59,175 nt of DNA from Proteromonas lacertae (taxonomy: Eukaryota). A program made the position numbers and the translations under genes. Location: assembly GCA_002245135.1 (NCBI GenBank), contig NGBS01001173.1, positions 124,001 to 183,175 on the forward strand. The letters run 5' to 3'. Below the pieces are notes generated by a model. That model saw nothing but the letters and a program-made list of their open reading frames with translations. It was not told where the DNA came from and ran no database searches. Below are positions 17,974-47,558 of this stretch, piece after piece (position 1 is the stretch's first letter; each line of letters begins with the position of its first letter).

Positions 17974-18651
17974 ATACTTTTTTCGATTAATACTGTAATA
18001 TACATTAGATAATTGATATTTTTAAGAATTTGGGGTGCAAAAATTTTCGCTAACCAAATTATTTAAATGTTTTATTAAAACACATTATATATTTAAAAAA
18101 TTTAAATAATTATAATATACCCTTTATTTTAGCACAAGTAATTATTAATACTCAATTTCAGAAGAATATTATCAGATTAAGTCGACTTTTGGTTAGAGAT
18201 AAAATGGATTATTTGAAATGTGTTAGATATGGATTTATTGCAAACAGAACAACAATGGTTTAATTGTAATTGTAATATCACTACCTACAGAATAACCTTA
18301 ATAACTTCATATCAAGAAGGAATCTCACCCTAATACAAAAATAGAAGAAATGATAATCTGAAGAACAGTCAATATTTTCATTTAAGTGTAAAGTTCATAT
18401 TCCTGAATAGAAATTGAATAGAAGGTATAGAAATTGTATTGGTACATCAACACTATTATTTATATCGAATTTTAAATTTACTACATGTAATATTTGTCCA
18501 ATCGTAATGAATGAACAGAATAAGGATGAAAATAAAATGACTATAGAATATATTTGAGATTCAGTAAAGAAAAACACTTACAACAGTAGTTCAAAGAATA
18601 ATGAATTTTTTTTGTTCAAGCCAAAATTCAAATCTTATCTGTTGTACGATT

Positions 18652-21600: not shown

Positions 21601-22490
21601 CTTCAATAGCAACTGTTTGGCAATATTCAAATAATAAGATATTAGTAATTGTAATGTGTAATAATAAGTTTTGTCATGATGTTGGAGAATCGCTTGCTAT
21701 AACAGCTTATACTATGAAAGATATAAATGTATTTAGATATTATATAAATGATACTTTAACATTTGATAAAGTTGCTGATTTATTAAAGCTGATTGAGACT
21801 GATAGAATGATCATATTTACTGTGTTAGGATTCGAAACAACTGATTTTATAAAGACATTACATGGAAAGAATATGGATGGTGGTAAATATACTGTTGTTA
21901 GTTTAGATGTATTAGTTGAATGGGTAGATCCAGAAATATGGGAAGAAGAAGCTTTCTTTGTTTCGTATACCAAAGAGAGTCAAACAAATATTGAAAATCA
22001 AAACTTTATTTTAGATTTTACTAAAAGATTTGGTGAGAATGACAAACTATTAAATGAGCATACTTTAAATATTTATACATCCATAATGATATTAAATAAA
22101 GCATTAGCAAAAGTAAAAGATAATACATTTGAAGAATTGAAAAGACAAATCAAAGGTTTGGTTTTAAAACTACCAGTTGGTGAAATAAAAGTAAGAGATG
22201 ATTTGGTTTGTTCCAATTCTTATGTGTTAGTTAGAATTGCTAATGGAAAATATAAGATTATGTTAAAGACAATAAATCCAATGGCAATATCTGCATTTCT
22301 AGCTTATGTATATATTGTTATTATTATAATTATTTATAGAGAAAGGATGGAGATACATCAAAATGTGAAACAGCAGAATCTTATAATGAATTATTGAATA
22401 TTAATTTAGTAATTAATAGCAATGAAGAATCAATTTTGATGTTGTTGAATTTATATTTGGTCAATTATAATGAAAGAGGTTATAATATTG

Positions 22491-22532
<42 letters not shown>

Positions 22533-30575: not shown

Positions 30576-30778
30576 AAAAATAACTAAATCACTTCATATA
30601 TTATTATTGTTTTGTTTGTTGTTTAATTAGGCTTTAGTGACATATTCTTCTGTTTTGAATGAATATGTTAAATCAAACAAAACTTCACTACTCATTCATA
30701 GAAACAGTGTGTAAAAACACACTATTACCAACATGTAACTCACTAATCATTTCAATATTTCATTCTATATATAGTATA

Positions 30779-30981
30779 TAAATGGGACCCTGGGACATTG
30801 TCACAGAGTCCTAACGAGTTTTCTAGGGGTCCGTCCCTTTCTAGATTCAGAGTTGACCTTTACGGGAGCTTCATCGATGCAATCGATGAAGCTCCCGTAA
30901 AGGTCAACTCTGAATCTAGAAGGGGACGGACTCCTAGAACACTCGTTAGAACTCTGTGACAATGTCCCAGGGTCCCATTTA
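30779..30981. repeat. Left terminal hairpin: 100-bp stem, GCA loop at 30879-30881
   Basis: Arms 30779-30878 and 30882-30981 are reverse complements with 4 mismatches. Confidence 0.95.
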
Positions 30982-30990
30982 CGTAAGGTT

Positions 30991-31096
30991 CCTACGGGAT
31001 TCCTCCCTACGGGGTCTACTACCTACGGAGTCTACTTCCCTACGGGGACTGCTGTAAGCTATTTCTATACCTATCTATGAGACGATCTCCTACGGG
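30991..31096 (+). repeat. CCTACGG(G) direct-repeat array next to the hairpin
   Basis: Copies at 30991, 31006, 31022, 31039 and 31089; mirrored as CCGTAGG in the right TIR. Confidence 0.8.
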
Positions 31097-31233
31097 TACT
31101 CCTGGAAGCTATCTAGAAGTGTTGGTTACCTCGAGGTGATGATTCTAATCACGCTCTTGACTCTCCTTGCTACGCTGGTGACCTTGTAAAGGCTTTTAAT
31201 TGAATCGTGGAAACCAACTGGGGAACCGGGAGT

Positions 31234-31301
31234 TTACAATTGTTAACTTGTTACCAATTGTTAACTAGTTACCAATTGGTAACAAGTTAACAATTGGTAA
31301 C
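31234..31301. repeat. Array of 16-bp palindromes GTTA(A/C)CAATTG(G/T)TAAC at 18-bp period (4 units)
   Basis: ttacaattgttaac-tt-gttaccaattgttaac-ta-gttaccaattggtaac-aa-gttaacaattggtaac. Confidence 0.9.
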
Positions 31302-31347
31302 TTCGATAGCCTTGAATAGTTGAAATCGTTTACCTAGTCAAGTATAG

Positions 31348-32420
31348 ATGGATCCAACCCAAGCAACATCTCCATTGAATGATAAAGCAGTCATAGAACA
31401 AGACACCTCCAGGGACTTCAATTTAGTTTCTCAACAATCCCAGGTAAACAACTACACACCACTGGTAGAAACATCCTCCGAAGGTAAGGTCAAGAGATCG
31501 CATAAGGAACTTCATAAGGCAGCTGAGGATCATCCAGCTAAGAAGTCACGGGTCAACAAAGTTTATTTCATCGAAGCATTGCTGGAGGTGCCAAGGAAGT
31601 GATTGATCCTAGCAGTATTATAAACGTACGTATTGCTATGTTCAGCTTTGCTTACTCCGCAATCGCAGCTCTTCATCATCATCAACTCAGTAAGAACGCA
31701 GTCAATGAGAATCCCGAGATGTACTCCAAGTACTTGAGCAAGTACATCATTAACTACCAACACCCTATAGCAAATCCAATATCATCTTCCAGACTCATCG
31801 ACTCCTTTGAAGAGAACAATAACGTGGGTGTTCACATCTATCAATTAAAGGGATCGCATTTACGATTAGCCAGACGCAGTAGCCGTACTTTACCGATGAC
31901 TTCTCCTGATCGTTTTGTTTACTTACTTTACATAGAAGCCGAGGAGGATGATCAAGTTCAATATCATTATACCGTGATTGCTAATCCAATGGACGTGATC
32001 GATGTTGATAATCCCGTGATTACTTCTGCTAGAGTCACCGACAAGAACATTTCCTGTGGTCTCTGTCCTTACTGCCTTAAGAAGTACCTAGGTTCCATTA
32101 ATGATCACATCCAACTCACCTGCTTAACTAAGGAGTCCAAGAAAAGTTATTGCAACTCCATGGGAACATCATCGTCTCTTAAGAAGAAGAAGGAGTCGGT
32201 ATACATTCAAGGTCATCTTGTAAAGTGCCTGAAGCTGATGAAAGAACTCAAGTACCAGGATGATGAACAGAAGCAAAGTATCCGATCGTTGAATCAGAGC
32301 TACTTGAAGATCATCAACAAGTTGGTTGTTGTCTATACTCCTGATGATAAGCAGTTGGAGGAGCTCTTATGCAAGACGGGTGATGTTATCAATAAGCTTA
32401 CAGCTCTTGATGATCCTTAA
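31348..32420 (+). CDS. Stand-alone remnant of the Polinton pPolB N-terminal OTU-like domain plus C2HC Zn finger; frameshift near 31593
   Basis: Adding one A joins the ORFs as LLEVPKEVIDPSSIINVRIAMFSFAYSAIAALH...FEENNNVGVHIY...VYLLYI...HYTVI...CPYCL...H...C. This matches the Polinton pattern LPKE...IINV.N.D..CF.WS.LAALH...FE..N.I.INVY...LL...HY..I...C..C. Confidence 0.6.
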
Positions 32421-32604
32421 AGTAATTACTTATCACTTGTCTTTACGGTGTTGTTTTGCTAGGAGGGTTCTTATCAATCAACAATAAGAGCTTTACCGAG
32501 GTCTTCATCAGCTGATATCAAAGCCCATCAAGGTAAAAGGAAAAGGTTTATCATCCCAAGACAAGACAGCTATCGTAAGTACATGAACTAAGCTCATAAG
32601 GCAA

Positions 32605-33372
32605 CTACTTATGGTTCACCATCTTCTTGAAGGTGGATGCCATTCTCGGGAGGTTTAACAAGGTTAAAGCATCATCACAGACTCGGAAGAAGTTCTTGGT
32701 ATCATTGTAAGGAACGTAGAATGCATTGTCCCATACCTCCATGGATTCCTTTGACAGGTTAAAGTCAGGATCCAAATGAAGTCTTATCTGGTTGTGGTCT
32801 GGATCCATCTCCATAATCATCTGGCCATCTAGACTAACTAGTATCACTGTACCATTATAAGAAGCAAGATCCTTTACTTGGATAGCGTCGTGTCCTCCAG
32901 TCTCATTACAAGAAGTCTTGATAAGCTTAACTTCATCCTTGGACTTTAAGGGTACCTTACGATCATCTCCTGGATGAACTCTAACATCTCGTTTATTCCC
33001 GGCCTTACGAGTAGCTACTAATGTCCTCGGTACTTTAATTGGACTCAACTTCCTTGGTTGTTGTTTACTTCCTCGGGCTGTGCTCTTCCTTGTAAGTCTC
33101 TTAGGAGTAGATGGTGGTGTACTTAAAGGTTCATCGTTAATGTAGTCTGGAGCAATGGTTGCTAATAAGCTTAAGTTATCCACAATGGCTTCAATGAGTT
33201 CTTCCCGGAGTGTTGCTTTACCTTGCTCCGTAATCATCGGCGATGACTTCCTTATGGTTCTACTACTAGCTCCTTGTTTCTTTACTCGGAGCTTCTTACC
33301 CTCCTTGGATGACTTATCAATGCTAGAGTTGGTTGATGATGATGATCTGCGTGATGACTTCCTGGGACTCAT
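32605..33372 (-). CDS. Viral hypothetical protein with a Ser/Arg/Lys-rich N-terminus
   Basis: 255-aa ORF with element-type codon usage. Confidence 0.7.
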   Translation of the reverse strand: MSPRKSSRRSSSSTNSSIDKSSKEGKKLRVKKQGASSRTIRKSSPMITEQGKATLREELIEAIVDNLSLLATIAPDYINDEPLSTPPSTPKRLTRKSTARGSKQQPRKLSPIKVPRTLVATRKAGNKRDVRVHPGDDRKVPLKSKDEVKLIKTSCNETGGHDAIQVKDLASYNGTVILVSLDGQMIMEMDPDHNQIRLHLDPDFNLSKESMEVWDNAFYVPYNDTKNFFRVCDDALTLLNLPRMASTFKKMVNHK

Positions 33373-33526
33373 AGACTTTGTCGGGATCGTATGGAAATTT
33401 GCATCTAGATGAATTCTCGGTCTTAAGCAATCGTGTATAAATGATTTTACTCATGTAAAATTGATCCCAATAAGATAGAAGGTGATGATAAAGCAAGTGA
33501 ATTATCAAGGGACGTTGTTAAGCTAG

Positions 33527-33880
33527 TTAGAGTCTTCGTCTCTTACCACCCTTGGACTTTGAAACAACGCGTTCCTCCAAGGTACCTTCAGCATCCATCA
33601 GATCAGCTTTTAGATCTCTTGCTAACCACTTGGCTTCTGCGTATAGACGATGAAGATCATCTAGGAGGATGAAGCTATCGGGACCTGATTCAGAATAGTT
33701 AATGTTGTTAGCTACCCTTTAATGGTAGTAGTTCTGGAGGTCACTTGCAAAGCCTGCAATCTGGATCCATGGAAGATTCAAGTGAATTGCTTTCAAGGAG
33801 TCATCGTCAGGTTCATTGTTAAAGGGATCATCGACCTCGTAGATCTCTTCATCACTCTCCTGGGTAAGTTTCTTAGGCAT
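33527..33880 (-). pseudogene. Viral hypothetical ~117-aa protein with a premature in-frame TAA at 33719-33721
   Basis: MPKKLTQESDEEIYEVDDPF...QNYYH*RVANNINYS...KSKGGKRRRL*, all in one frame; C-terminal NLS-like KRRR. Confidence 0.6.
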
Positions 33881-33933
33881 TGTAAGCACTTGGGTTATTT
33901 CAATAGGAAAAGTTGAACTACTCCCTTCATTGA

Positions 33934-35151
33934 ATGAATTCCTGGAAGAGCATGATTCCCATCAATAGCTCATCGATAAAGATGACAGTCCCTACCATGC
34001 AATCCTCGGAGAAGACATTACCTGAGATCTCCAAGGACTTAGCTATCGACTATCAACATTACCCAGTCCTTACTCCTCCAATCCATCGATGCACTCCTTT
34101 CGTTTGTGGGTGTCGAGATTCAACAAAGCTTCGGAGGTACGACTACCCATCTATATTCGAGTACCGAGATCTACACAAAGGTTATGCTTTACAATTCTTA
34201 TGGGACCTCAAGATCGAAGTAGAAGTATTTAACTCAAAGAAGTTCAACGAGAGTGTAAGTGATGGAATCTGCCTGGATGTTCCAGCAGGTTGTGATCGTC
34301 AGCACCCGTTCTATCTCTTGATGAAGGATAGTAGAAGTCAACTAGGTTCATTGAAAGCAAAGTTCTTTACTGAGACTGGAGAGCTCAAGACTTCAACAAC
34401 GACTTCATCCTCTGATGATCAAGTAAAGGTAACATCGTGGTACTTTGGAGTATCAGTGAATCCTAAGTACACTGATCGCTATAAGCTATGGCTCAACAAT
34501 CAAGGAGACGTCTATCGATCGGTTTATAAGCAATCGCTTACCTCAGACTATTGGAAGGATGGAGACATGATGATCATCTATCCCGAGAAAGTCTGGGAAC
34601 TCATCGATGAAGTAAGTGAGAATAAACAAAGGAATAAACACGTCCACGTGAATGTGAAGAAGGTGGATGAAAAAACAAGGAGCAAGATTCAAATGAAGTT
34701 GGATCAAGATTTAAAGGAGATAGAGAAGTCCCGGAGGAGTATTGAGGCACTCAATGAATCCTCCGAGGACTTGTTTATCAGTGGTAAGCAAAAGTACAGT
34801 AAGGTAATTTATCAAGGAGTGGAATACAACTCTATGGATGGAAGTGACTCTGACAATGACCAAGACTCTCATAGGAAAGGCAAGTATTGCACTATCGATC
34901 TGGATGCTACGATAATGATCTTTAAGTTTAACAAGGATGGGAGCATGAGTGAAAGAACACTAAGTCCCGAGGAGATCTTTAACCGAGAAGCTCATCGTCT
35001 TACTTCTGATCAACGAGAAGAACTCAAGAGATGTCGTCAGCTCACATTCAGGGTCAAGAGAAAGTACGTAAAGCATCAGGCTGTAGATTCATCGGATCGA
35101 AGAAGTCATCATCATCTTCATCATCGACACACTCAGAGGAAGAGCTCATAG
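33934..35151 (+). CDS. Viral hypothetical protein (405 aa)
   Basis: Long ORF; no motif recognised. Confidence 0.75.
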   Translation: MNSWKSMIPINSSSIKMTVPTMQSSEKTLPEISKDLAIDYQHYPVLTPPIHRCTPFVCGCRDSTKLRRYDYPSIFEYRDLHKGYALQFLWDLKIEVEVFNSKKFNESVSDGICLDVPAGCDRQHPFYLLMKDSRSQLGSLKAKFFTETGELKTSTTTSSSDDQVKVTSWYFGVSVNPKYTDRYKLWLNNQGDVYRSVYKQSLTSDYWKDGDMMIIYPEKVWELIDEVSENKQRNKHVHVNVKKVDEKTRSKIQMKLDQDLKEIEKSRRSIEALNESSEDLFISGKQKYSKVIYQGVEYNSMDGSDSDNDQDSHRKGKYCTIDLDATIMIFKFNKDGSMSERTLSPEEIFNREAHRLTSDQREELKRCRQLTFRVKRKYVKHQAVDSSDRRSHHHLHHRHTQRKSS

Positions 35152-35191
35152 CCGATAAGCTATTATTAAATTTCTTGCCTACTCCAGAAAC

Positions 35192-36376
35192 ATGATCTCA
35201 ATTCATCAACCCGATAAGAGACTCTTACCAATCTACCCGAGAGTGTGTATTCATAAGGCCGATCGTGGAATCCAAGAAGGTAATGAATGGACTCTTCTAG
35301 TCAAGGAAGTTCAAGAGAAGTTATCGGAGTGTGAACAATTAGCTCTGGACACGCACTTTATCATGATCGACAATGCTAACAAAGGAATCACTGAGAGTGA
35401 CTTGGAAGTTCACAGCTCAGTAAGGATGTTACTCAAGGTAGTTCATCAGTCAGTGATCAAAGCTAAGGAAGTGTTAAGGACTTGCCTTCATCGTATCACC
35501 GACTGTGAGTTGAAGGATCATGAGATCGTAGAGAAGAGCATTTACCAGAGCCGGGCATGTCTATTCCTATACTCCATGGAAGGAATGATATCAGCAGAGT
35601 ACACGATGGGAAAGTGTAAGTCCGAGATCTACTATTCAGTCTATAAGAAAGCTGCTAACTTAAGACTTAAGTTCCATTGCTTGATGATTAATGCGGTCTC
35701 GTGGATGACAACCTACCTGGACCCTTACAATCTCTTTGGTAAGCACTGTGAGTACATCAATACTATCAAGAACGGAGCCTGCCAGATCAACACTTACTTT
35801 AATGCTGTGGAGGAGAACTACTTTGCTGATCGAGAGTTAACAAGAAGCCTCTTGAGAGATGTTAACATCTCCGACAATGAGGTCGATCACTTGCTAGAGC
35901 AGTTCTATACTATGAAGGAGAAGTGCGATAGACTAGATAGCAAAGTCATTGCTGAACTGTACTACTATGAGGATGATATCGTTAAGCTTCAAGAGAAGTT
36001 TAAGGAGATCGTCCAGATAATGGAGGAGTGTCTACTCCATACTTACAGCTGGTTGATGATGTTCAAGAAGGAGACACCACAAGAAGTTCCTCAAGTGAAG
36101 GACAAGGACAAGGACCAGGAAGAAGTTACTAAAGCAATCACTTACGCAAGTGTCTTAAGTAATAGTAAGAGTCGTCGTAAAGCAAAGAAACGAGATACTA
36201 TTGTTACCTCCGAGGCAACAGTAGTATCCTCAAAGAAGAGATGGTACTATCAAGAGTCAAGGATCGATTACATCTTACACCTTCAAGGAGCTCTTATTGA
36301 GACTAGGAAGTTCATCTCCCAGCTGATCATCGACTCCGAGGAGCACCTTCTCAACTGGTGGGAACAAGATCATTGA
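35192..36376 (+). CDS. Viral hypothetical alpha-helical protein (394 aa)
   Basis: Long ORF with helical/coiled-coil character and a basic patch SRRKAKKR. Confidence 0.75.
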   Translation: MISIHQPDKRLLPIYPRVCIHKADRGIQEGNEWTLLVKEVQEKLSECEQLALDTHFIMIDNANKGITESDLEVHSSVRMLLKVVHQSVIKAKEVLRTCLHRITDCELKDHEIVEKSIYQSRACLFLYSMEGMISAEYTMGKCKSEIYYSVYKKAANLRLKFHCLMINAVSWMTTYLDPYNLFGKHCEYINTIKNGACQINTYFNAVEENYFADRELTRSLLRDVNISDNEVDHLLEQFYTMKEKCDRLDSKVIAELYYYEDDIVKLQEKFKEIVQIMEECLLHTYSWLMMFKKETPQEVPQVKDKDKDQEEVTKAITYASVLSNSKSRRKAKKRDTIVTSEATVVSSKKRWYYQESRIDYILHLQGALIETRKFISQLIIDSEEHLLNWWEQDH

Positions 36377-36463
36377 AGCTTTACTTAAACAGTATTTTTG
36401 ATTATGAAACTAGTGCTTAGGGATTCCCAGAAACAACAACGAGAGTAAGCAAAGTAAAGGGAA

Positions 36464-37861
36464 TTAGAATAAGCTTAAGAAGGAGTTAGCAATCGTTTGA
36501 ATCTTAGCAATGGACTGCTTGAGATCATCAACTTGATCGTGGAACTTCTTAAGGCTCTTGAAAGAGTCCCAGTCTAATGGTACGTAGAGATTGTCCTGGA
36601 GTTGTAAGACTGGGTGCTTGAGAATGGATATCAGCTCATCATACATCTTGGAGTAGTCACGGCAAAGGGTTCTGAAGTTAGCTCTAGTCATCATACCTAT
36701 GTGATTGCTTATGACGTTCTCAAAGTCGGTGACATGCTGGATAATAAAGTCAGTAAGGGCTTCCACCTCCTTATCAAGATCGTTGAGTTTCCATAGCTGA
36801 GTGATTACCTTATCCTTGTAATGGTCAAAGTGTGGATGCTCTTGAAGTAAGCTCTCTCGGAACTGATGGTAGTAGCTGAGAAAGGAAGTAGCATCGCATC
36901 GTAGATCAAGGCTATACTGTTGGAAGTCTCGGAGATAACTCATAAAGACCGTGAACTGCTCAGGAGTATCGGATGTGGTCTTCGTGGCCTGAAGGAATTC
37001 AATCAAGGCATTAACTTTACTCTGGAGCTTTCGGACGATGTTCTTGTAGGCAGTCAGTTCATAGAGAGAATCAGTCTTGGCGTTATGCTTCATAAAGAGA
37101 ACATAGTCTAGCAGATTTACGGCATGTTGATAGATACTACTTTGTCTAGAACACCACTCAGTAAAGTATCTTGGATCCTTGGAGGACATCTTCCATTCAC
37201 TATTGATCAGGGAAAGTAATTTACTGTCATTGACCTGTCCAAGTAAGATTATAAAAGTATCCGTTTCATGAGATGGAGTATCACAGATCTCTTGGTAGCG
37301 AAGCATGGACTTGGTTAAGCAATCGTGGATGATCTGGTAAAGTCTCTTGACTTCCTGACAGTAGTTCATAGGAGTCCAGTACTTGGGTATCTCCTCAGAT
37401 CCCTCCTCGGAGGATTCCTCGGAGCTCTCTTCGGAGCTCTCTTCGGAAGAGGAGTATAACTCTTCAGAAGGCTCCTTTGAAGGCTCCTTTGTAGGTTCCT
37501 TTGTAGGTTCCTTTGAAAGTTCCTTTAAAGGTTCCTTTAAAGGTTCTTCAACCGGTTCAGTGACAGGATCTCTCTGATTCAGAAGCTCCTTTTGAAACTC
37601 AATATCATCATCAATCTCTGTCTCTACATCGGACAGATCCCTTGAAGTATCACAGCATGGTTCTGTACTGTCACTATCACTGTCATTACAGATAGCCTCG
37701 GTCTTTACCTATAAACAATAAAGCAATGAAGCAAGTACCTTCTTCTTATCAGGCTGACAGTCATCAGTCTTCAAGGAAGCTTCCATACACATGGTGATCT
37801 TATTAACAGCTCCTTGACCACAACTATTACAAAACTCACAGGTACGAGATCTTTTTGACAT
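36464..37861 (-). CDS. Viral ~455-aa protein with a 30-nt intron (37709-37738): Cys-rich N-terminus, KEP(S/T/L) and EESS repeats, helical C-terminus
   Basis: Exon 1 MSKRSRTCEFCNSCGQ...PDKKK; intron GTACTTGCTTCATTGCTTTATTGTTTATAG ends in an in-frame TAG; exon 2 VKTEAIC...KYWTP runs in frame into ORF 36464-37369. Confidence 0.75.
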
Positions 37862-38094
37862 GGTAAATTACGTAATTGACAAAGTATTAGAAGTGCAAGA
37901 AAATTGAAACTAAGAGAAGTGTCGATTCATAAGCATTAATTGTAAAATGCCAAATGCAATACATAGTACCAGTGTATTGGGTATTAGTCAAAATAGAATT
38001 GAATTTAGTCGTTACAAGATAGTCATAATAGAATTGCAAATTAGTGGTTTCAATATATGAAGGTATATATACATGATTGAAGGTTCAATTCATA

Positions 38095-38176
38095 GGGGGG
38101 CGTAGCCCGAATGGTCAGAGGAATGCCGTAGGAAGTTCTAGCCCAGCCGGGTAGCCCAGCCGGGTTCAAATCTTGC
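38095..38176 (+). ncRNA. tRNA-derived Pol III-like cassette (A box and B box, upstream TATA)
   Basis: GGGGGGCG-TAGCCCGAATGG (A box) ... GGGTTCAAATCTTGC (B box/T arm). TATATATA lies ~30 nt upstream at 38064. Internal 13-bp duplication TAGCCCAGCCGGG x2. No 3' acceptor strand. Confidence 0.55.
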
Positions 38177-38203
38177 AAAGGAAATAAAAGATAATAAAAG
38201 TAC

Positions 38204-38319
38204 CCTAGAAAACTCGTTAGAACTCTGTGACAATGTCCCATAGTCCCATTTACGTAAGGTTCCTACGGGATTCCTCCTAACGGGGTCTATTGACTACGGT
38301 GCCTATTTCCCTACGGGAC
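38204..38319 (+). repeat. Internal partial copy of the left TIR (distal half of the inner hairpin arm plus CCTACGG array)
   Basis: Aligns to 30933-31049 in the same orientation. Confidence 0.92.
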
Positions 38320-38377
38320 GATCACTTACAGGATGATCTTCAAGGGAAGTACTTGATAAATTCCTTAAGCAAAAGCC

Positions 38378-39196
38378 ATGGTCAAGAAAGTAAGAGCGTT
38401 CTCAAGAGCAACTAAAACCAAGATCATTCCCAAGGACATCCAACGATCCCTTGTAACTCAAGTAGCTGATGTACTCAACATTCCGGCAGCTCCAGTCGTA
38501 CTTCTCCGAGATGCTGAACTAGCAAGGAGATCAACTAAGACTCCCAGGTCAACATCTTCACGTCCAGACAAAGCAATCATCGATCTGGCTAATAAGTATA
38601 AGGAGGTGATGAGCTTACCAAAGGAAGCTTCCGAGGAGACCAGAAGTATTCTACGTCAACTATCACGGGATGTTGCTAACATCGCTGAGAAGGACAACCC
38701 ATCCTTTCAATTGATCCGAGAGCATGCTGCTAAAGCCGGTGTTGAGATTCCTGACTTCAAAAGGAGTTCCAAATCTGATGGTAAGTCAACTCCATCAATT
38801 CTTCATCGGGCAGTGGATTATATAAAGGGAAAGCTTCCAGCTGGAGAGACTGTCAAGGATATAATGAGGAGTCCACAAGTATGGGCCGCAGTAGTTAACT
38901 ATCTTGGACGAGGTAAAGGTGATTCCAAAGAGGAGGAAGAGGATGATGTTGGTTACTATGCTAGACTATATAATCAATACCGTAAGGTGACTTCCAAGAG
39001 CCGTGAACGCGAGTCCTCCTCCTCCGATGATGATGATGATGAGATTCCAATCCTTGAGGTTGATCCAGACTATGTGTCGGAGGACGATGCTGACGATGTT
39101 GAAGCTGATGATGAGTTCCCCTTTAATCATTCTCACGGTAAGATCAAGATGGTAAAGCCTTCTCCTTCTGAGTGGTACAAGTGCTTACAGTTGTAA
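38378..39196 (+). CDS. Viral hypothetical protein with basic N-terminus and acidic C-terminus
   Basis: 272-aa ORF. Confidence 0.7.
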   Translation: MVKKVRAFSRATKTKIIPKDIQRSLVTQVADVLNIPAAPVVLLRDAELARRSTKTPRSTSSRPDKAIIDLANKYKEVMSLPKEASEETRSILRQLSRDVANIAEKDNPSFQLIREHAAKAGVEIPDFKRSSKSDGKSTPSILHRAVDYIKGKLPAGETVKDIMRSPQVWAAVVNYLGRGKGDSKEEEEDDVGYYARLYNQYRKVTSKSRERESSSSDDDDDEIPILEVDPDYVSEDDADDVEADDEFPFNHSHGKIKMVKPSPSEWYKCLQL

Positions 39197-39231
39197 TCCT
39201 TAACTTCTTCGGTCTATCTATCTCTCCTAGT

Positions 39232-39759
39232 ATGTTTGGGACTTTTAAGCAACAGCACCTCCATCAACAAGAACTCTTTGAAGCCTTATCAGCGATCCGT
39301 GATCACTTCAAGAGAAGTCCTGGCAATCAGCATGTCATTGATAATCACTACCTCCGAGACTTTAAGAAGAGAAGATATCTCCGACACTCCATCACGAACT
39401 ACAACAGTGCTGATCAAGGAGATGTCTACGATTCCATGAATAACCTAGTTAATGAGATCAAGGAACTGCTCCAAGAGAATCCACCGTCAGTACGTGCAAT
39501 TGACATCCCCGAGTATGATGAACTGATGAAACGATCCTCCGATGATGACTTAACCTACTTGCTACGGGATCAACTGATAAGGCTCCTTGTCTTGTGTGGT
39601 GGATCTAACTCCTCAGGCATCTTCAAGATGAATAAGCTAAAGCAACGCCACCTAAGGAACATACAATGTTTAATTAAGATAATCAAGGTAAGGAAGTTCT
39701 ACGTGTCGAAGGAGTTACAGTCTCTTTATAAAGTAGTTCTTCGATCTCTAGCTTACTAA
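39232..39759 (+). CDS. Viral hypothetical helical protein (possibly exon 2 of the 38378 gene)
   Basis: ORF 39172-39759, first ATG at 39232. A candidate 38-nt GT-AG intron at 39193-39230 would join the two frames. Confidence 0.6.
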   Translation: MFGTFKQQHLHQQELFEALSAIRDHFKRSPGNQHVIDNHYLRDFKKRRYLRHSITNYNSADQGDVYDSMNNLVNEIKELLQENPPSVRAIDIPEYDELMKRSSDDDLTYLLRDQLIRLLVLCGGSNSSGIFKMNKLKQRHLRNIQCLIKIIKVRKFYVSKELQSLYKVVLRSLAY

Positions 39760-39813
39760 CATTCTACTAAGTATTGTTATCTTAAGTTCATCGTTGTTGA
39801 TGGGGTTAATCAT

Positions 39814-40752
39814 CTAGTCCACAAAGAGTTGCTTATCGAAGTTGATCCTATACTGAGCCTTGTGCATATCAATGTATAGGAAGCTATAAGGAGTATGCTC
39901 CGTGGCCGTATGATAGAACTCCTTGAAGAGTCTAAAGGGAGTTGCCAAGGCAAGGGACTTATGAAGTAATTGAAGGTGGCTGCATGATATGTTTTTGAAG
40001 GCTAAGCAATAGTCCAGCTGAAGTCTTTGACCAGGAGTAAGGTCTGTAATGTACTGACTACTGATAATCACCTTTGCCTTGTAATGCCTGTTCTGCTTAA
40101 GGAAGGTGATTAGCTGGGGATCTTTCAGGTCATTGCTAACATCATCGAATACAAAGATGTTCTCAGCGCAGGTGCTATTCTCTTTATCTGGAGGTGGTAG
40201 ATCGTGAAGTACTTCCTCCAGGTTGTTGGTCTTGTCTTCCTCGTTCACGATTGAGTCAAAGGTGTAGTAGTCGATCTTGTTGTACTCCAACATCTCCATG
40301 ATCTTATCGTAGAGCACATCCTTATGGATCGTACCAACAAATAAGTAGATCCTTTGATTCTTACCCTTGATTAGTATATGTTGAAGGACATTGTAGATGA
40401 CTGTTGTCTTACCAGAGTTCTTCTTTGCTAGGAGGAAGATGTTACAGAAGGGTTCATCGAAGTAGTCATAGCCGACAACATCCTTCCCGTGACTGGAGGT
40501 CTTGATTTTCAAAGGCTTTACTTCTGCCTGGTTGATCTTCTCATACTCTATCTTTAAATGGCCCTTGGATGATCTCGGTAACTTCTCTGGTAAGTAAGCA
40601 TCACCATGTACTTCATCATCATCTCCATCATCATCCTTAAAGCGATCATCTCCTGATCCTTTCAGTCTTTGCATCTTACTGAGATGAAGATCTCCAAAGG
40701 GTTGCTTTCTCTTGTTAACCATAAGCATCATAAGAACTAAGTATACGATCAA
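39814..40752 (-). CDS. A32/FtsK-HerA family genome-packaging ATPase
   Basis: Walker A variant AKKNSGKTT, Walker B IFVFDD, QNRHYK (Arg-finger RH), IISSQY, C-terminal PYSFLYID...YRINFD. Confidence 0.9.
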   Translation of the reverse strand: MIVYLVLMMLMVNKRKQPFGDLHLSKMQRLKGSGDDRFKDDDGDDDEVHGDAYLPEKLPRSSKGHLKIEYEKINQAEVKPLKIKTSSHGKDVVGYDYFDEPFCNIFLLAKKNSGKTTVIYNVLQHILIKGKNQRIYLFVGTIHKDVLYDKIMEMLEYNKIDYYTFDSIVNEEDKTNNLEEVLHDLPPPDKENSTCAENIFVFDDVSNDLKDPQLITFLKQNRHYKAKVIISSQYITDLTPGQRLQLDYCLAFKNISCSHLQLLHKSLALATPFRLFKEFYHTATEHTPYSFLYIDMHKAQYRINFDKQLFVD

Positions 40753-40776
40753 GAACTTATCGATAAGGAACTTTAC

Positions 40777-42129
40777 TTATGCTATACAACGAATGCCCGA
40801 GGTGGTAATCTCAGCTCTTCGTCCAGTGATCAAGTAGAATCGGTGATTCACAGACTTGTGATCTAGCTCTGAGTTGTAGATCTCAAAGGTGATCTTTAAA
40901 TCTCCGTCTAGTCTTCTCCCAGCAATGGTCTTAACATTACCAAGGTTGTCACTACCGAAGTTGAGTACCTCAAAGAACTTCTCGGTAAAGGGCTTCTTGT
41001 TGAGTTGATCATACCAGCTTCCTCCAATGTACTTCTTAAGCAACTCGTAGCTATCGTAAGTCTCCATGTTCTGATAGTTGGGATTGTAGTTGAAGTCGTT
41101 GATCATCCACTTGAATCTTGCTTTGGAGTCTAAGGGAAGGACACGGTTCTTCATTGTATATGCCTGATAGACGATGGCTTTAATATAAGGACCAATAGAG
41201 CTGTTGATTGTAAAGGAGTAGTTGAAGTAATCGCCGGTGCTGGTGATGGTGATGCTCTTGTCATGATAGTCACTAAAGGGAATGGGCTTCTCAATACAGG
41301 AGACGATAGATTTCTTGTTGCTGTTGAAGTCCTTGTTGTATAAGGCTCTGATGCAAATGTCCTTGATCTCACACTTTGCCTGAAGAGTAACATCCTCCTT
41401 GCTATATTCATACTTATCATCGTCGGTATCGAACTTCGCATCAGTAGCTGTACTCAATCTTCCGAAGTTGGTGATCTCTCCCCATCGGATGCTGAGAAGT
41501 AACTTCTCTCCGAAGAATAGATCAGTGGGATTTGCTAGGACAGTGTTATACATCTCATTGAAAGGAATCTTTACAAGGACTTCCAAGTAGCCGTCTTTCA
41601 CTTGAGTATCCCAGAAGGTGTTGTTTACCTTGGAGGTGCATCCATCATTTCCATTATCTACCGAGGTGAACTCCATACCAGGCTGGAGGATATCTCCGTT
41701 CTTCTTTTGCCAGATACCATCGAAATAAGTGTGTTGTCTATTGACGTGAGTTGTCTTCCTTTGAACTTGTTGCATAAGCCCTCTGTATTGTTCATAAGTG
41801 TCAGTTACATAAAGCAAGTTGATTCCAGCAGCATTGTGTACTCTCAAGGAGGAGATATTGAAGGTGTTGTATAGGAGGATCTTCTCAGCCTTCTTGTTAT
41901 TGTCAGAATCCTTATATCCGATGATTAGACGATACTCTAAGTAACTCTTGCTAAGGTTAATGCAATTGTCGGTAGCTATCTCGAACATGACCTCTGCGGT
42001 TGATCCAGAAGTACCAGCATTGACCGAGGTGTTGCTCTGGGTAGGGTTGACTTTCACGGGTACGTAAAGTGAATCATAACTCTCGGAGTAAGCTCCTTGT
42101 TGAACACTTGCTGGGATGAATGTTGTCAT
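40777..42129 (-). CDS. Putative double-jelly-roll major capsid protein
   Basis: 450 aa, beta-strand-rich. N-terminal 'EVMFEI...INLSKSYLEYRLII' and 'IPFNEMYNTVL...DLFFG..LLLSIRW' resemble Polinton-like-virus MCPs. Lies between the ATPase and the protease. Confidence 0.7.
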   Translation of the reverse strand: MTTFIPASVQQGAYSESYDSLYVPVKVNPTQSNTSVNAGTSGSTAEVMFEIATDNCINLSKSYLEYRLIIGYKDSDNNKKAEKILLYNTFNISSLRVHNAAGINLLYVTDTYEQYRGLMQQVQRKTTHVNRQHTYFDGIWQKKNGDILQPGMEFTSVDNGNDGCTSKVNNTFWDTQVKDGYLEVLVKIPFNEMYNTVLANPTDLFFGEKLLLSIRWGEITNFGRLSTATDAKFDTDDDKYEYSKEDVTLQAKCEIKDICIRALYNKDFNSNKKSIVSCIEKPIPFSDYHDKSITITSTGDYFNYSFTINSSIGPYIKAIVYQAYTMKNRVLPLDSKARFKWMINDFNYNPNYQNMETYDSYELLKKYIGGSWYDQLNKKPFTEKFFEVLNFGSDNLGNVKTIAGRRLDGDLKITFEIYNSELDHKSVNHRFYLITGRRAEITTSGIRCIA

Positions 42130-42216
42130 TGCCTTTGGGTAATCTCCTAAGTAAAATTGAACTAGGAAAAGACTTATTACTTAGATTAAGTTAAAGGTTC
42201 TCTTGAGCAGTGCCAT

Positions 42217-43020
42217 TTACTTCTCGCCCTGGATAGAGTTGAAGTTAGTTGCCTCCTTGAAGGACAGGTTCCTTCCGAGGATATTGAATAGGAAGTAGAT
42301 TGCAAAGTAACCACAAGTGTCGGTGTTGACCTTCTGGTTCTTGATTCGATTGATCTTGAGTTGGTACTTATCCTCGGGATTACCTTTATGGTGTTGTAGT
42401 TGCTGGATGAACCACGAGTAGTTCTTAGGGTTCTCTCCGAAGCTATCATAGTAGTAGATTTGCCTTCGATTATCATCCACGACTAAGGCAACCCAATGCC
42501 CGATCGCATTCTCAGCACTTGTAGTTGTAAGGGTATTGAGAATGCATCCCCATCTATTTGTTCCTAAGACTCGAAGGTCTTGCTTAAGTTGATCCCATAA
42601 GAAGACTCCAGCGAATTGTCCATTGAAGTCACTGTACTCTTCCTTGATCAGCCTCTCGATATCGAAGTTGCTTAAGGCATCATCATGGCTAGCAACTTTA
42701 CCTTCAGCAAAGTACTCATACTTATCCTCATGCTCCTTATCAACATCATCATCGATGATATCCGAGAGTGGCATCTCCAACATCGAGTTGATTTTCAGCT
42801 GTCTAAATAAAGGGTCTGTATCTGCATACACTACAGGTTGTCGTTCTTGCTCTTGTCTACTAGGTAATAGGATTGGACTTTGAACTGCTGGCTGGGCAAT
42901 TGGTATTGAAGGAACGTAGGAGTTCACCTGGTCCTCCATTATCGAATAGCTGCCTCCTTGAACTTTACCTAGACCTTTGAAGCCATTGAAGAGATTACCA
43001 GATGATTCCTCCCATACCAT
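42217..43020 (-). CDS. Adenain/Ulp1-like (clan CE) virion maturation cysteine protease
   Basis: Catalytic motifs GHWVAL, YYYDSFG, NQ...DTCGYF. Confidence 0.92.
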   Translation of the reverse strand: MVWEESSGNLFNGFKGLGKVQGGSYSIMEDQVNSYVPSIPIAQPAVQSPILLPSRQEQERQPVVYADTDPLFRQLKINSMLEMPLSDIIDDDVDKEHEDKYEYFAEGKVASHDDALSNFDIERLIKEEYSDFNGQFAGVFLWDQLKQDLRVLGTNRWGCILNTLTTTSAENAIGHWVALVVDDNRRQIYYYDSFGENPKNYSWFIQQLQHHKGNPEDKYQLKINRIKNQKVNTDTCGYFAIYFLFNILGRNLSFKEATNFNSIQGEK

Positions 43021-44072
43021 TACCTAGTCCTCCTCCTCACATTGAGTTGATTGATCGCGTTAACCATTGCATTGTTAAGTGTTGTATCGGGACCTTTGTA
43101 CTGAGTCTCTAGCCATCGGAAGAAGTCATCGTTAGGAGTGTTGTTGTAATTGTCATTGAGTTTATCAACAGCCTTATCAATCAACTGAACTACTGGGTGG
43201 TTCTCATCATAGCCAGCGGCCTTAGCAAAAGACTTAAACTGTTCCTTGTTGCCTTGAACGAACTTAAGAAACTCTCCAGCTAGTGTCTGATGATCTGTTT
43301 GAAACAACCTTCCTATACCCGGGATGGAACGTAGGAGACTTCCTACGATAGGGATCTGTCCTATTCTACTTCCGAAGGTTGAGATTAATCCAACCATTCC
43401 AAGGATGGCTCCGATGGCACCTCCTATCTTCATTCCACGGTCTGTTATTCCTGACTGATTCTGGGTAAGTGAGTTACTAGTATTCCCAAAGGTGTTGATC
43501 ATCCTGGAGACATCTTGTTGTTGCTTCAATAAGGAGTAAATATCATTATTACTAGTTGTGTTATCATATAAGGGAAGAGTTCCACGGCTAATTGTTGTCC
43601 TTGAGTTGTTGACATTGTAAGGGGTCATGATGGAGCTCTGATAGTCCACATACTTTTGGTAATCATCAGCAAAGTAAGTTGCTGAAGGATGCACATTGAG
43701 CTTCTTACGTTCCTCCTCGGCAAGCAGCTTTCTAAGGTCAGGGTTTTTCACGAGGAAATGATCGTTGTAGGTCTTGCTAGCAAGGTACTTCTCCTGGAGT
43801 TCACCGCTCTCCTCGATGTTGTTCTCCAAGGGATTGCTCTTAACGATTGATAAGGAATTACCTTCTCCGTCTTGAGTATCATCAGTGTTGTTGTTAGGAG
43901 CTATCTCTGATAGCAAGGTAGTTAAGTAGTGTAAGTCATCAGTGTTGTTTATCTTGACCTGGAACTCCTTCTTAAGCTTCTGCTGTAGTGCCTTCACAAC
44001 TCTTGAAGTAAGCTTCTTCTTCCTTGAGTTGATTCCTTTGTCTTTATCGTTTACCATCGATATCTTTACCAT
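43020..44072 (-). CDS. Viral hypothetical virion protein with a Gly-rich hydrophobic/amphipathic segment
   Basis: 350 aa; GMKIGGAIGAILGMVGLISTFGSRIGQIPIVGSLLRSIPGIGRLF. Its stop overlaps the protease start (TAATG). Confidence 0.7.
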   Translation of the reverse strand: MVKISMVNDKDKGINSRKKKLTSRVVKALQQKLKKEFQVKINNTDDLHYLTTLLSEIAPNNNTDDTQDGEGNSLSIVKSNPLENNIEESGELQEKYLASKTYNDHFLVKNPDLRKLLAEEERKKLNVHPSATYFADDYQKYVDYQSSIMTPYNVNNSRTTISRGTLPLYDNTTSNNDIYSLLKQQQDVSRMINTFGNTSNSLTQNQSGITDRGMKIGGAIGAILGMVGLISTFGSRIGQIPIVGSLLRSIPGIGRLFQTDHQTLAGEFLKFVQGNKEQFKSFAKAAGYDENHPVVQLIDKAVDKLNDNYNNTPNDDFFRWLETQYKGPDTTLNNAMVNAINQLNVRRRTR

Positions 44073-44393
44073 GGACGATTGACTATTGGAAAAGAACTTC
44101 TATTGCTTATCAGTCCTCCTCGGGATTGTCAGGATAGTTATACCAAGGCTTTACAACCACCGAGGACTTCAAAGCTTCTGATTGTTGATGAAGTTTATTT
44201 AGAGTCGATAGATTGAACCTCCGGGATCTATCTTGTACTGCTTAAGTTGATTGTCCATCTCCTGAGTCTTTATCTCCCGGTGTTTTCTCTTAGACTTCCT
44301 TCTAGGATAGTTGTCAGGAGGATCTTCAAGGCACTTGTTCTTTCGATCGTAAGTTGTTTCTTCAATCTCCATTGAATGGAACTTGGAATTGAC

Positions 44394-44828
44394 TCAATAC
44401 TGAAGGTTATTGTTCTTTAGGAACTGCTCTATCTTCTTTTGATTCTCAAGAGCCTTCTTCTTACTAATACGTTTCTTTCTTGCTTGTTGTGTATTGCTCT
44501 TCTCGGGAGTGTTCATCAACTTGGCCTTTAAGTTCTTCAACCCATCGGAGATAAGCTTCTTGATGTTACTGAGTACTAGTTCCATAGAGTAAGTTCTTGG
44601 AAGGGCATTGGAGATATCGTCCAGTTCATAGTCGTCAATAGCAACGATGTCAGGGATGGGAATGGGTATTGCTGGGCCTTTAGATGTTCTTCTTCTTCTT
44701 CTAGTCTTTATCAGCCTAGGTATATCAGTCTTGTTAAGTTGCCTTACAATGATCTTCTCTTTGCGTTTGTCTTTAAGCTTCTTGAGTATCTCAGGATGCT
44801 GCTTAAGCATTGCTTTGGTTCTAGCCAT
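44394..44828 (-). CDS. Basic putative core/DNA-binding protein starting MARTK
   Basis: 144 aa, very Lys/Arg-rich (KTRRRRRTSK, ARKKRISKKK). Confidence 0.7.
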   Translation of the reverse strand: MARTKAMLKQHPEILKKLKDKRKEKIIVRQLNKTDIPRLIKTRRRRRTSKGPAIPIPIPDIVAIDDYELDDISNALPRTYSMELVLSNIKKLISDGLKNLKAKLMNTPEKSNTQQARKKRISKKKALENQKKIEQFLKNNNLQY

Positions 44829-44896
44829 TGTAATTGCCTTTAAGAAAATGCCTTATATCATCTTCTAGTATTTACTTTCCCGAGTGATTCTTACGA

Positions 44897-45528
44897 TGGA
44901 ATATCTCTTGTCCGATAACATCAGTAGCCGATCCTTGTTGATCTCCAACCTCACTTGTCTAGTCGATAGTTACCAAGAGTGTACTGGAGCTTCATGGAAC
45001 TTTACTTCCTTTGACTTTGTCACCATCCTTTCATCCGTACTACAAAACATCACTGTGAAGACTGATGGAAGCAGCAACAATAGTATGATCGATATGATTA
45101 TCAACTATGGGATGACCGTCTTGTTAGCAATTGTCCTTACAGGTGTTGGCTATATCCTTAAGAAGCTAGGAGTGATCAATAACATGTCCGACATCACTGA
45201 GATCAAGAACATGGTATTAACTCAACGAAGGCAAAGTACTGTCTTTGAGAGTGACTTAGAGGATATCAAGAAGACTTTACTGGGTAATTCTGCAAGAAGT
45301 AGTGGTAACTCTCCTAGCAATGGAGCTCCGATGATGTTGCTAGGCTCTTCAACTTCAACCATTGACAGTACTACTTCTCCTATCATTCCAGAGACAATCC
45401 CTAAGGGATCTGATGTTGAGTCCCTTGAAGTAAGCATTAGTGATAATGAGTCCGGCAAAGTACTTCCCAAGAAGATTGATATCTCCGATGGAAACTTACT
45501 TGACCCCAGCAATAGCATTGAATTCTAA
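44897..45528 (+). CDS. Viral single-pass membrane protein with a Ser-rich tail
   Basis: ORF 44884-45528; TM segment IINYGMTVLLAIVLTGVGYILKK. Confidence 0.65.
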
Positions 45529-45544
45529 CTTAAGTCCTTTAACT

Positions 45545-46661
45545 TTATCGTATATTGTATCTCTTGATGAGCTTGCGGTTCCTTGTTATACCAGCATCTT
45601 CATTTACCTTGAGGAGTTCATTTGACTTATAGCACTTATCGGAGATGTCCTTGACCGGAATTCATGTTAGCATCTCCGAGGATGAAGGAGTAGGTGTTCT
45701 TTGCGATGATCCGATAGATGACGTCAGAGTAGAATAAGGCCTTCTCTATCTTGCTTACTCGACGTTCCTTAACTCTTACGAAGTCCCCAATATTGAACTG
45801 TTCCATGGCAGTGTTCCTTTGGTTACACATCTCGGCGTGATTGTAGAAGTACTGCTGGACATCTTCGTCGTAGAAGACTTCATTGGGAGTGAACCAGGAT
45901 AAGGATGCCTTCGGTTTATTGTTGTACTGATCAACGACTTCATCGATAAGTAGATTGAATTGTCTTACGTTCAGAGCTCCTCGAGAGTGGAAGTCAACAT
46001 CAGCTATTCTCTTGTAAAGCAATCTCTTGACCTCAGAGACTGAATGATCAAGGATGCTCATTACATGATGCTCATCTACGTCCTTAACGATGTACTGGAT
46101 CTGGTGTTGTATAAGCTCCTCTTGAAACAAGTTGCATAAGAAGGCTCCTTCCTTGTCTGTTAAGATCGTTGATACATTGCGGCTATGCTCATCCCTTAAA
46201 GGTTCCTTCTCATGTCCTTGATAGAAGAACCGTTGCCATGCCTCCATCACTGAGTTATAAGTCTTATCAGGCATCCAGTAACAGAATACCTTCCTGCTAG
46301 GTACGTGAACTAGATAAAGCCATCCGTACTTGTGACTATTCTTTGGTAAGAAGAAGACTATGTCCATTTGATAGCTGTCAGGAACTGGAATGATCTTTAA
46401 GGGCTTTATCCTGGTGTTGATGTAGACTACCTGATTGCCCGGTTGTCTGTAGTAGAACTCCTTTACGTATTCTACTGGGATTGATTTATCGTAGTGATGT
46501 ACTTGCCTTATGAACTGATTAAGAGATAGGAATGGTAAGGTGTTGTAAGTCCTTTGAAGTAGATCCTCAGGAGATGAGAAGGTCGGAGGTTGATAGAACG
46601 TAGACTTCACGTATGGCTTTATAGGGATCTCCTTACTTGTGTTATTGATGGTTGCTTCCAT
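45545..46661 (-). CDS. Retroviral-type (rve) integrase of the Polinton class; frameshift near 45661 in the C-terminal domain
   Basis: YQMDIVF (D), ILTDKEGAF (D), SILDHSVSEVK (third acidic residue), YNNKPKASLSWFTPNEV, FNIGDFVRV. The shifted frame continues IPVKDISDKCYKSNELLKV...NIR* to 45545. Confidence 0.9.
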
Positions 46662-46756
46662 GGGATCATTGACAATCAGGTTACCTTCTTCTTCTTCAGG
46701 CTGTTGTAGTTGTGGATCTTCAAGGGTTGATTCATCATTGGGAAAGACTTTACTAC

Positions 46757-47230
46757 TTAGAGACGATAGACAATGACTTTGTTGGTGCTTCTACGGGTAC
46801 TTGATTTACCACCTTTACTTCTCTCGGCCTTATGAAGTTTTACTTTACCTAGTCCATTGGTTTTGAGAACATCACTTATCATCGGTCCAGCTACAGGAAT
46901 GTACTTGCTTACCGTGGATAGCACCTTGCTTTTCTTAAAGAAGTTACCTATGTCCTGGAAGAATCCCTTGCCTTTGACTTTTGACTTCTTCGATTGTTGG
47001 TTCTCAAGGAAGCTGCTATAAAGGGTTGGAGTATAATAACAATAAGCAGGAGCCGGGTTGTACTTTCTCTTGGTTGCTTTATCGGAGCTAGCAAAGGGTA
47101 ATGGCTCCAATGGATCCTCGTAATAACATTGATCGGTAAGATCATCCACGGAGGTGAATCTGGATCTACTATCAAGACTATCCTCGTTGGAGTATTGATG
47201 AGTGTTGGGATTGTAGGTATGGATAGGCAT
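46757..47230 (-). CDS. Putative membrane-lytic virion protein (adenovirus pVI/cupiennin-like)
   Basis: Adenain-type site VKGK|G is followed by the amphipathic helix GFFQDIGNFFKKSKVLSTVSKYIPVAGPMISDVLK and a basic tail. Confidence 0.6.
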   Translation of the reverse strand: MPIHTYNPNTHQYSNEDSLDSRSRFTSVDDLTDQCYYEDPLEPLPFASSDKATKRKYNPAPAYCYYTPTLYSSFLENQQSKKSKVKGKGFFQDIGNFFKKSKVLSTVSKYIPVAGPMISDVLKTNGLGKVKLHKAERSKGGKSSTRRSTNKVIVYRL

Positions 47231-47472
47231 CTTACTTTGACCTTGGAATTAACAAACTGGAATGCCATTCTTGGGAGCTTCCTAAACGTAGAAACCCCGT
47301 AGTTTCTACGGTCTATCAGTCTCATTTTTCCCGGACAATTGTTGAGCATTGGAACACTTTACCTAGGTGAATTATAAGGTCATTGTAACTTACCTCTAGG
47401 AAGCTCCCGAGAATGCTTATCATTATCTTCAAGTGCCCTTGAGAAATCCACAACTAGCTAGAACCTCCCGGA

Positions 47473-47558
47473 GTTACCATTTGGTAACTTGTTAACAATT
47501 GTTAACTTGTTACCAATTGGTAACTAGTTAACAATTGGTAACAAGTTAACAATTGTAA
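47473..47558. repeat. Right array of 16-bp palindromes (5 units, 18-bp period)
   Basis: gttaccatttggtaac-tt-gttaacaattgttaac-tt-gttaccaattggtaac-ta-gttaacaattggtaac-aa-gttaacaattgtaa. Confidence 0.9.

Follow-up and report, generated by a model that had tools for sequence, protein, structure and literature searches.

The window analysed here, a stretch of 59,175 nucleotides from a Proteromonas lacertae contig, contains an endogenous Polinton-like virus (PLV) in which a double jelly-roll (DJR) capsid protein, an A32-type packaging ATPase, terminal inverted repeats (TIRs) and an integrase are all present. The features of the element are given below; no strand is stated for symmetric or strandless ones.

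30768..30773: left copy of the target-site duplication, TATATA, with the preferred boundary
30774..48030: the complete endogenous Polinton-like virus of 17,257 bp, GC about 42% against 22-31% in the host
30774..31302, plus: left TIR of about 530 bp, sharing 92.8% identity with the right TIR
30774..30778, plus: 5-nt tip outside the stem, unpaired in the fold
30779..30981, plus: left terminal hairpin, arms 30779-30878 and 30882-30981 of 100 nt each, loop GCA
30991..31095, plus: five CCTACGG repeats directly inside the hairpin, spacings 15, 16, 17 and 50 nt
31231..31302: AT-rich palindrome at the inner border of the left TIR, 9-nt units, z -9.1
31348..32420, plus: ORF with a break in frame near 31540-31600, its second part homologous to the N-terminal domain of a protein-primed PolB (pPolB)
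32605-33372 (minus), 33934-35151 (plus), 35192-36376 (plus) and 36464-37708 (minus): four long uncharacterised ORFs, no family match above cut-off
38204..38317, plus: internal TIR fragment with 90% identity to the TIRs, comprising the inner hairpin arm's distal 50 nt and the 64 nt that follow
38378..39759, plus: two uncharacterised ORFs, no family matches
39814..40731, minus: A32-type packaging ATPase, 64 matches, many with PF04665 (which we take to be the A32-type packaging ATPase family), the only Walker A in the element
40777..42129, minus: DJR major capsid protein, best 10 Foldseek rows all DJR capsids
42217..43020, minus: Ulp1/adenain-type maturation protease, PF02902, E 6e-6, above cut-off
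43020-44072 (minus), 44394-44828 (minus) and 44896-45528 (plus): three ORFs without family matches in Pfam
45636..46790, minus: rve-type integrase, Pfam E 3.5e-5, below cut-off, with two invariant Asp and Asp as third acidic residue
46757..47230, minus: small basic ORF, weak homologues in related PLV contigs
47470..47563: AT-rich palindrome at the inner border of the right TIR, longer than its left counterpart
47821..48025, plus: right terminal hairpin with an inner arm of 102 nt, an outer arm of 100 nt and TGC as plus-strand loop
48031..48036: right target-site duplication TATATA (preferred boundary)

The Foldseek matches of the capsid reached E values of 7e-7 at best (7e-7 to 1e-5 over the best 10 rows), with a model whose pLDDT was only 48. 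Four capsid relatives at 33-35% identity were found among 3311 candidates, and capsid queries against viral_contigs returned no relatives. The integrase had its closest relative at 36% identity and showed a frame break near its C-terminal end, at about 45640-45660. It shares this property with the first ORF (31348..32420), each having one frame break, which reflects either decay or read error. The rve gene, the TIRs and the 6-bp duplication support the integrase-mediated insertion that the first-pass annotation of this DNA had proposed.

The four long uncharacterised ORFs gave nothing above cut-off in Pfam, PHROGs and NCBIfam, and no paralogy could be detected between the ORFs at 35192-36376 and 36464-37369. 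For the ORF at 33934-35151 we obtained an Atlas lead of 0.79 only; an HVH motif in it was considered as HUH and dropped, having no match in the motif scan or in the PDB. A series of 12-nt tandem repeats at 37473-37560 encodes a KEPT/KEPS tract at the start of the ORF at 36464-37708. Searching the element with a profile of 15 putative penton ORFs, taken from relatives, gave no significant frame, although a divergent penton could escape such a profile.

Just upstream of the internal TIR fragment lie a 17-nt inverted piece of TIR (38118-38134) and a short GC-rich tandem repeat. These old TIR pieces divide the capsid-integrase module (38.2-48.0 kb) from the 6.7-kb block of uncharacterised ORFs, an arrangement that looks like the capture of an earlier left end or junction.

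The host flanks are AT-rich and carry intron-broken genes, among them receptor genes with periplasmic-binding and 7tm_3 domains, which marks the host as an AT-rich eukaryote. Two of these are giant (575-8205 and 18601-30575), with at least five periplasmic-binding domains, and the second ends in a 7tm_3 GPCR domain. On the right flank, the sequence at 48100-48255 could, judged by eye, encode the C-terminus of a protein kinase domain. Further out, 400-bp direct repeats of 99% identity (52035-52437 with 58775-59175, and 54245-54641 with 58380-58774) abut at 58774/58775; the ORFs that they enclose had no NCBIfam match, and the region may have been duplicated locally or may represent a further mobile element.

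Terminal hairpins and element boundaries

Fold-back hairpins of about 200 nt at both termini, a 100-bp left stem with four mismatches and a GCA loop, and a complementary TGC loop in the right hairpin had been described for this DNA, and all were recovered on alignment. The left arms were 96% complementary, the palindromes measured 203-205 nt with a GC content of 48%, and both form the outer 200 nt of the TIRs. The DNA folding energy was −117 kcal/mol for the left and −123 kcal/mol for the right hairpin, whereas 40 dinucleotide shuffles of each gave means of about −23 kcal/mol, which corresponds to z scores of −24.7 and −30.5. Other inverted repeats of at least 40 nt in 42 kb of host DNA were exclusively (TA)n-rich among the 25 longest of 231 pairs. 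We are almost certain that the hairpins are a real, inherited feature. A search with the hairpin centre as a pattern in viral_contigs and a search of Rfam both returned 0 matches.

The right TGC is the TIR mirror of the left GCA, so that both loops share one orientation relative to the interior. Read from the outside in, the loop was GCA at both ends, and all three inner junctions were of one type, too few for significance. Flip/flop isomers, which the first-pass annotation had raised, did not appear when the two ends were compared, both loops being alike. We take GCA to be a GNA triloop; loops of this kind form very stable DNA mini-hairpins. At 30879-30881 it lies on the 5'-end strand, and the priming strand would carry TGC.

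Across the 540 alignment columns of the two TIRs there were 24 substitutions and 6 gap events, and GC changed from 40-44% between the TIRs to 22-31% outside. A 6-bp TATATA duplication can be derived from two symmetric boundaries, 30774/48030 and 30781/48023, and several others give 4 bp. The inner alternative places the duplication at 30775-30780 and requires an empty site that was a 20-bp palindrome, whose 12-nt core had 0 copies in 41.9 kb of host DNA, a weak test. We consider the outer boundary, 30774/48030, very probably the correct one. The choice matters for the end of the DNA. With the outer boundary, the stem begins 5 nt from the end, as had been stated, and the folded 3' end carries a 5-nt flap whose terminal C is paired with a probability of 0.04-0.05 at 37 °C; with the inner one, that statement fails, and the stem extends to the very end of the DNA, whose paired 3' end is a ready primer. 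In the tip, which is identical at both ends, the mirror image of the base at the inner junction is joined by an additional TATA, a composition from which an origin by slippage may be read. The CCTACGG repeats are candidate protein-binding sites, and the palindromes at the inner TIR borders are possible origins, promoters or protein-binding arrays.

As relatives we compared 80 metagenome loci and 8 more, all distant, with ATPases 29-38% identical. A near-perfect hairpin-tipped TIR was found in none of the 80 loci and in none of seven of the eight later ones, although these loci are only distantly related and come from fragmentary assemblies; repeats of this kind are where short-read contigs commonly end. 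Fold-backs of at least 60 nt occurred in 11 of the 80 loci but in none of 80 block-shuffled controls. Their arms were 67-81% identical. Since these fold-backs are imperfect, internal and intergenic, we did not count them as support for the terminal hairpins. Long, imperfect hairpins were repeated between the genes of five related PLV contigs, several of them having GGTGGAAG-type arms:

L028: 3969-4302, 7095-7194 and 14398-14566, intergenic hairpins
L014: 5384-5789 and 10279-10678, intergenic hairpins
L061: 5978-6307, intergenic hairpin
L073: 8076-8305, intergenic hairpin
L095: 9850-9986, 12662-12754 and 15774-16064, intergenic hairpins

They are candidate terminators, origins or small mobile repeats, and two of the three fold-backs in L095 lie between convergent genes. 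With a terminal repeat of 127 nt the same contig maps as an 18.7-kb circle, and in L097 the sequence recurs with a period of 20.2 kb, so that part of this ATPase clade seems to be circular or concatemeric, not TIR-ended. Four further PLV-like contigs (L099-L102) lie within four bacterial MAG records and are probably mis-binned viral DNA.

Distribution of alleles among the hairpin arms

The four hairpin arms were aligned together with the internal fragment 38204-38317. At arm position 42, the left outer arm and the inner arm of the fragment had T, whereas the right outer arm and both inner arms had G. Position 50 showed the same allele pattern, but it is the last base of the fragment and hence weak. 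The fragment thus carries alleles of the left outer arm in an inner position. A T-run and a C-run near the loop were longer in both right arms, being shared by end and not by arm position; the motifs previously noted there, GCCTTC/GAAGGC and TTTT/AAAA, are literally present in both right arms. With three firm sites at which both alleles occur in both arm positions, either exchange between arms or repeated mutation is needed. The chance of two independent insertions falling in matching runs was 6e-4, or 7e-3 within 2 nt, both estimated post hoc.

The right outer arm has two bases fewer than its partner arm. Each of these two private deletions, and each of the two indels that the right arms have in common, affects a single base within or next to a homopolymer run, a pattern typical of long-read or polishing error. 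In a gap-free alignment of the outer arms the right end requires five private changes, against four and a copying event. Three variants of the left outer arm are missing from the left inner arm, to which they were not copied, and homogenisation between arms is incomplete. It had been proposed earlier that arms are copied from each other within one end: the three firm sites speak for copying, but it is neither restricted to one end nor complete. Alleles have thus moved between outer and inner arms, which may have happened while the palindrome was folded or was copied across itself.

Search for replication genes

Profile, tblastn and motif searches detected no polymerase, primase, helicase or HUH Rep in the element, for which 91 frames of at least 50 aa were listed. 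No replication gene was found in Pfam with the 15 ORFs of the element and 43 further frames, in PHROGs with 18 or in NCBIfam with 11. The ORFs of 22 related loci, among which are polymerase, primase and helicase genes, likewise found none when used as tblastn queries. A motif scan of 360 frames of at least 60 aa found Walker A in the packaging ATPase only and no PolB or HUH motif. Searches of Pfam, PHROGs and NCBIfam gave no match to a nickase, resolvase or protelomerase. Among relatives of the same ATPase clade, 5 of 10 sampled loci had pPolB, primase-helicase or PIF1 genes.

One trace of a polymerase may be left. The second part of the first ORF (31542-32420) matched the N-terminal domain of a 1300-aa viral ORF (L088/L094) with 28% identity over 145 aa (E 4e-8, pairwise), and it was the sole match of a two-sequence profile run against the 360 frames (E 8e-4). 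The viral ORF has family-B polymerase motifs, read by eye, from which we presume it to be a polymerase; this label found no confirmation in Pfam, PHROGs or the PDB, nor when the ORF was compared with the polymerase of L014, and the databases gave only an endonuclease VII insert. The related sequence from L081 alone had no significant pairwise match to ORF 31542-32420. A motif search had given 13 matches; 11 of them were discarded as short chance frames, and those in L081 and L088 were retained. The single phmmer match of ORF 31542-32420 to P0069, a bacterial Ig-repeat protein, was rejected as chance, and the fold search with its single-sequence model (pLDDT 34) gave nothing above Z 4.9. This region of pPolB has been described, in the accessible part of the source, as a vOTU protease with catalytic Cys and His (10.1101/2024.03.18.585575). 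ORF 31542-32420 has Ser at the Cys position, keeps the His and has no polymerase domain behind it. To judge from its sequence, it would be a dead relic of a lost pPolB that retains the N-terminal vOTU-type domain.

Possible roles of the hairpins and comparison with known systems

As the element has no recognisable DNA-copying enzyme, its hairpins likely serve host or helper enzymes as starting points for copying it. We hold this priming to be their function only tentatively and give it slightly less than an even chance. The exact position of the hairpins at both ends, the lack of a detected replication enzyme, the relic of the pPolB domain and the exchange between arms are in its favor, as are the replication enzymes of relatives in the same ATPase clade and the independent precedent of the palindromes in Halocafeteria elements, described below. 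Against it stand the lack of a detected nickase or resolvase and the tip, which with the preferred boundary is unpaired and not a copy of the inner junction, as strict hairpin transfer would make it. The uniform orientation of the loops and inner junctions, the indels in or beside homopolymers together with the two frame breaks, the undetected penton and the lack of hairpin-tipped TIRs among the distant relatives also count against it.

The palindrome might instead be an end signal: a cruciform cut by host resolvases for release, or a pair of symmetric sites for integrase or packaging, with a pPolB supplied in trans by an autonomous relative initiating replication by protein priming. An unpaired tip, identical at both ends, is what a protein-priming or integrase site would look like, the CCTACGG repeats and the second palindrome suggest protein-binding ends, and the pPolB-domain relic and the missing penton suit a non-autonomous derivative. 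Protein priming, however, needs no 100-bp stem. Moreover, the palindromes of Halocafeteria seosinensis elements, in the accessible part of their description (bioRxiv 10.64898/2026.07.28.741278), go preferentially with elements other than those carrying pPolB, and we regard the end-signal reading as rather unlikely. A little less probable still is a functionless, frozen accident, in which a free end folded back, was copied and spread by homogenisation of the TIRs. The arm mismatches, 4 and 3 per 100, are close to the neutral decay expected from TIRs that are about 6% apart, the second palindrome, of unequal length at the two ends, indicates DNA prone to fold-back errors, and accidental annealing is offered as an alternative in what could be consulted of the same preprint. 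Such a fold-back, however, would leave the old end hidden within the loop, whereas the integrase used the new tip precisely at both ends; the same arm and junction are already present in the internal fragment, which is older, and similar ends recur in unrelated elements, as far as the accessible text of bioRxiv 10.64898/2026.07.28.741278 goes.

That the hairpins or their symmetric variants are artefacts of assembly or polishing appears very improbable to us. The shared and private indels in or beside homopolymers and the two ORFs with frame breaks would fit such an origin, but the palindromes lie inside the contig at mirrored positions, bounded by the target duplication, five of the seven differences between arms are substitutions, as are 24 differences between the TIRs, and one arm allele recurs in the 90%-identical internal fragment. 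Read error could explain the covariation of the indels, not the palindromes.

If the hairpins do prime synthesis, the single-stranded 3' end would, after release, fold back on itself and be extended, either after trimming of the 5-nt flap or from a minor register with a TATA bulge, beyond which the last three bases are paired. The closed end thus formed would be opened by a host resolvase or by a factor supplied in trans, copying from TIR to TIR would keep both ends alike, and the integrase would insert the element via the tip. With no detectable penton, the element may be decayed or non-autonomous and have an intact parent with a polymerase. A more far-reaching scenario, which we consider doubtful, is that the lineage abandoned protein priming: the pPolB decayed to the dead vOTU relic, the 100-bp hairpins took over priming, host polymerases and junction resolvases copy and release the element, and the integrase reads a tip derived from TA slippage. 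This would amount to parvovirus-like replication without Rep in a Polinton-type virus. Confirmation of priming as such would link protein-primed Polintons to hairpin-ended replicons; if it is wrong, long terminal palindromes arise and persist in such elements for another reason.

Covalently closed hairpin telomeres are found in poxviruses and in N15. The 200-bp palindrome resembles their replicative concatemer junction and could resolve to a closed end, but its GC content of 48% is not AT-rich, no resolvase or protelomerase was detected, and the integrated form is open. The covalently closed ends that had been suggested are at odds with this integrated form, which holds both arms, the tip and the target duplication; a covalently closed intermediate is possible.

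The inverted terminal repeat (ITR) of the parvovirus AAV2 is likewise a terminal palindrome inside an inverted repeat with short motifs beside it. According to the accessible part of PMC11575299, it primes with a host polymerase and needs nicking by Rep; AAV2 relies on host or helper polymerase, and the same reliance is proposed for the present element. By this analogy the hairpin may work like an AAV ITR. The differences are considerable, as neither a Rep/HUH nickase nor an SF3 helicase was detected, the hairpin is a rod and not T-shaped, the tip is unpaired with the preferred boundary, no flip/flop was seen in the two ends, and the element has a DJR capsid and an integrase. Because Rep is absent, it is not a parvovirus-type replicon. 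The rolling-hairpin cycle put forward in the first-pass annotation does not hold in its strict parvovirus-like form, given the lack of a Rep nickase and a 3' tip that is unpaired in the likelier boundary.

With Polintons/Mavericks the element shares a size of 15-20 kb, TIRs of hundreds of bp, a 6-bp target-site duplication, an rve integrase, an ATPase, a protease and a DJR capsid; it differs from them in its long terminal hairpins, in having no detected penton and in a pPolB reduced to a broken N-terminal relic. Judged by the strict definition of Polintons/Mavericks, the rve integrase, the protease and the 6-bp duplication are there and the protein-primed PolB is not. For PLVs, TIRs of hundreds of bp, target-site duplications of 4-6 bp and an integrase are described in the accessible part of PMC12220804. 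In the accessible portions of that paper and of PMC10120064 the words hairpin and palindrome are not used, and a literature search, with subscription journals outside its coverage, found, among the titles listed, hairpin-ended Polintons or PLVs in the Halocafeteria preprint only.

The accessible part of that preprint, of July 2026, reports palindromes in TIRs adjoining target-site duplications in virophage subtypes 1, 2, 5 and 6, as well as in PLV subtype 4 of Halocafeteria seosinensis, with 52 nt in the drawn example, and proposes a hairpin-priming model (bioRxiv 10.64898/2026.07.28.741278). The hairpin-priming idea is not new, the model being the same; exchange between arms is not discussed in the portion accessible. 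Like those elements, the present one has a palindrome in the TIR beside the target duplication (recessed by 5 nt or flush, depending on the boundary), an rve integrase and no pPolB. As far as the available text describes them, the Halocafeteria elements preferentially carry non-pPolB replication genes, whereas none was detected here, their PLVs are without the protease that is present here, and their palindrome, in the one subtype with a stated size, has 52 nt, so that the one described here, of 203-205 nt, is four times longer. All in all, the present element, in which no replication gene was detected, is a longer and cleaner variant of these recently described terminal palindromes, and its long, near-perfect hairpin with marked arms makes it a strong test case for the hairpin-priming model.
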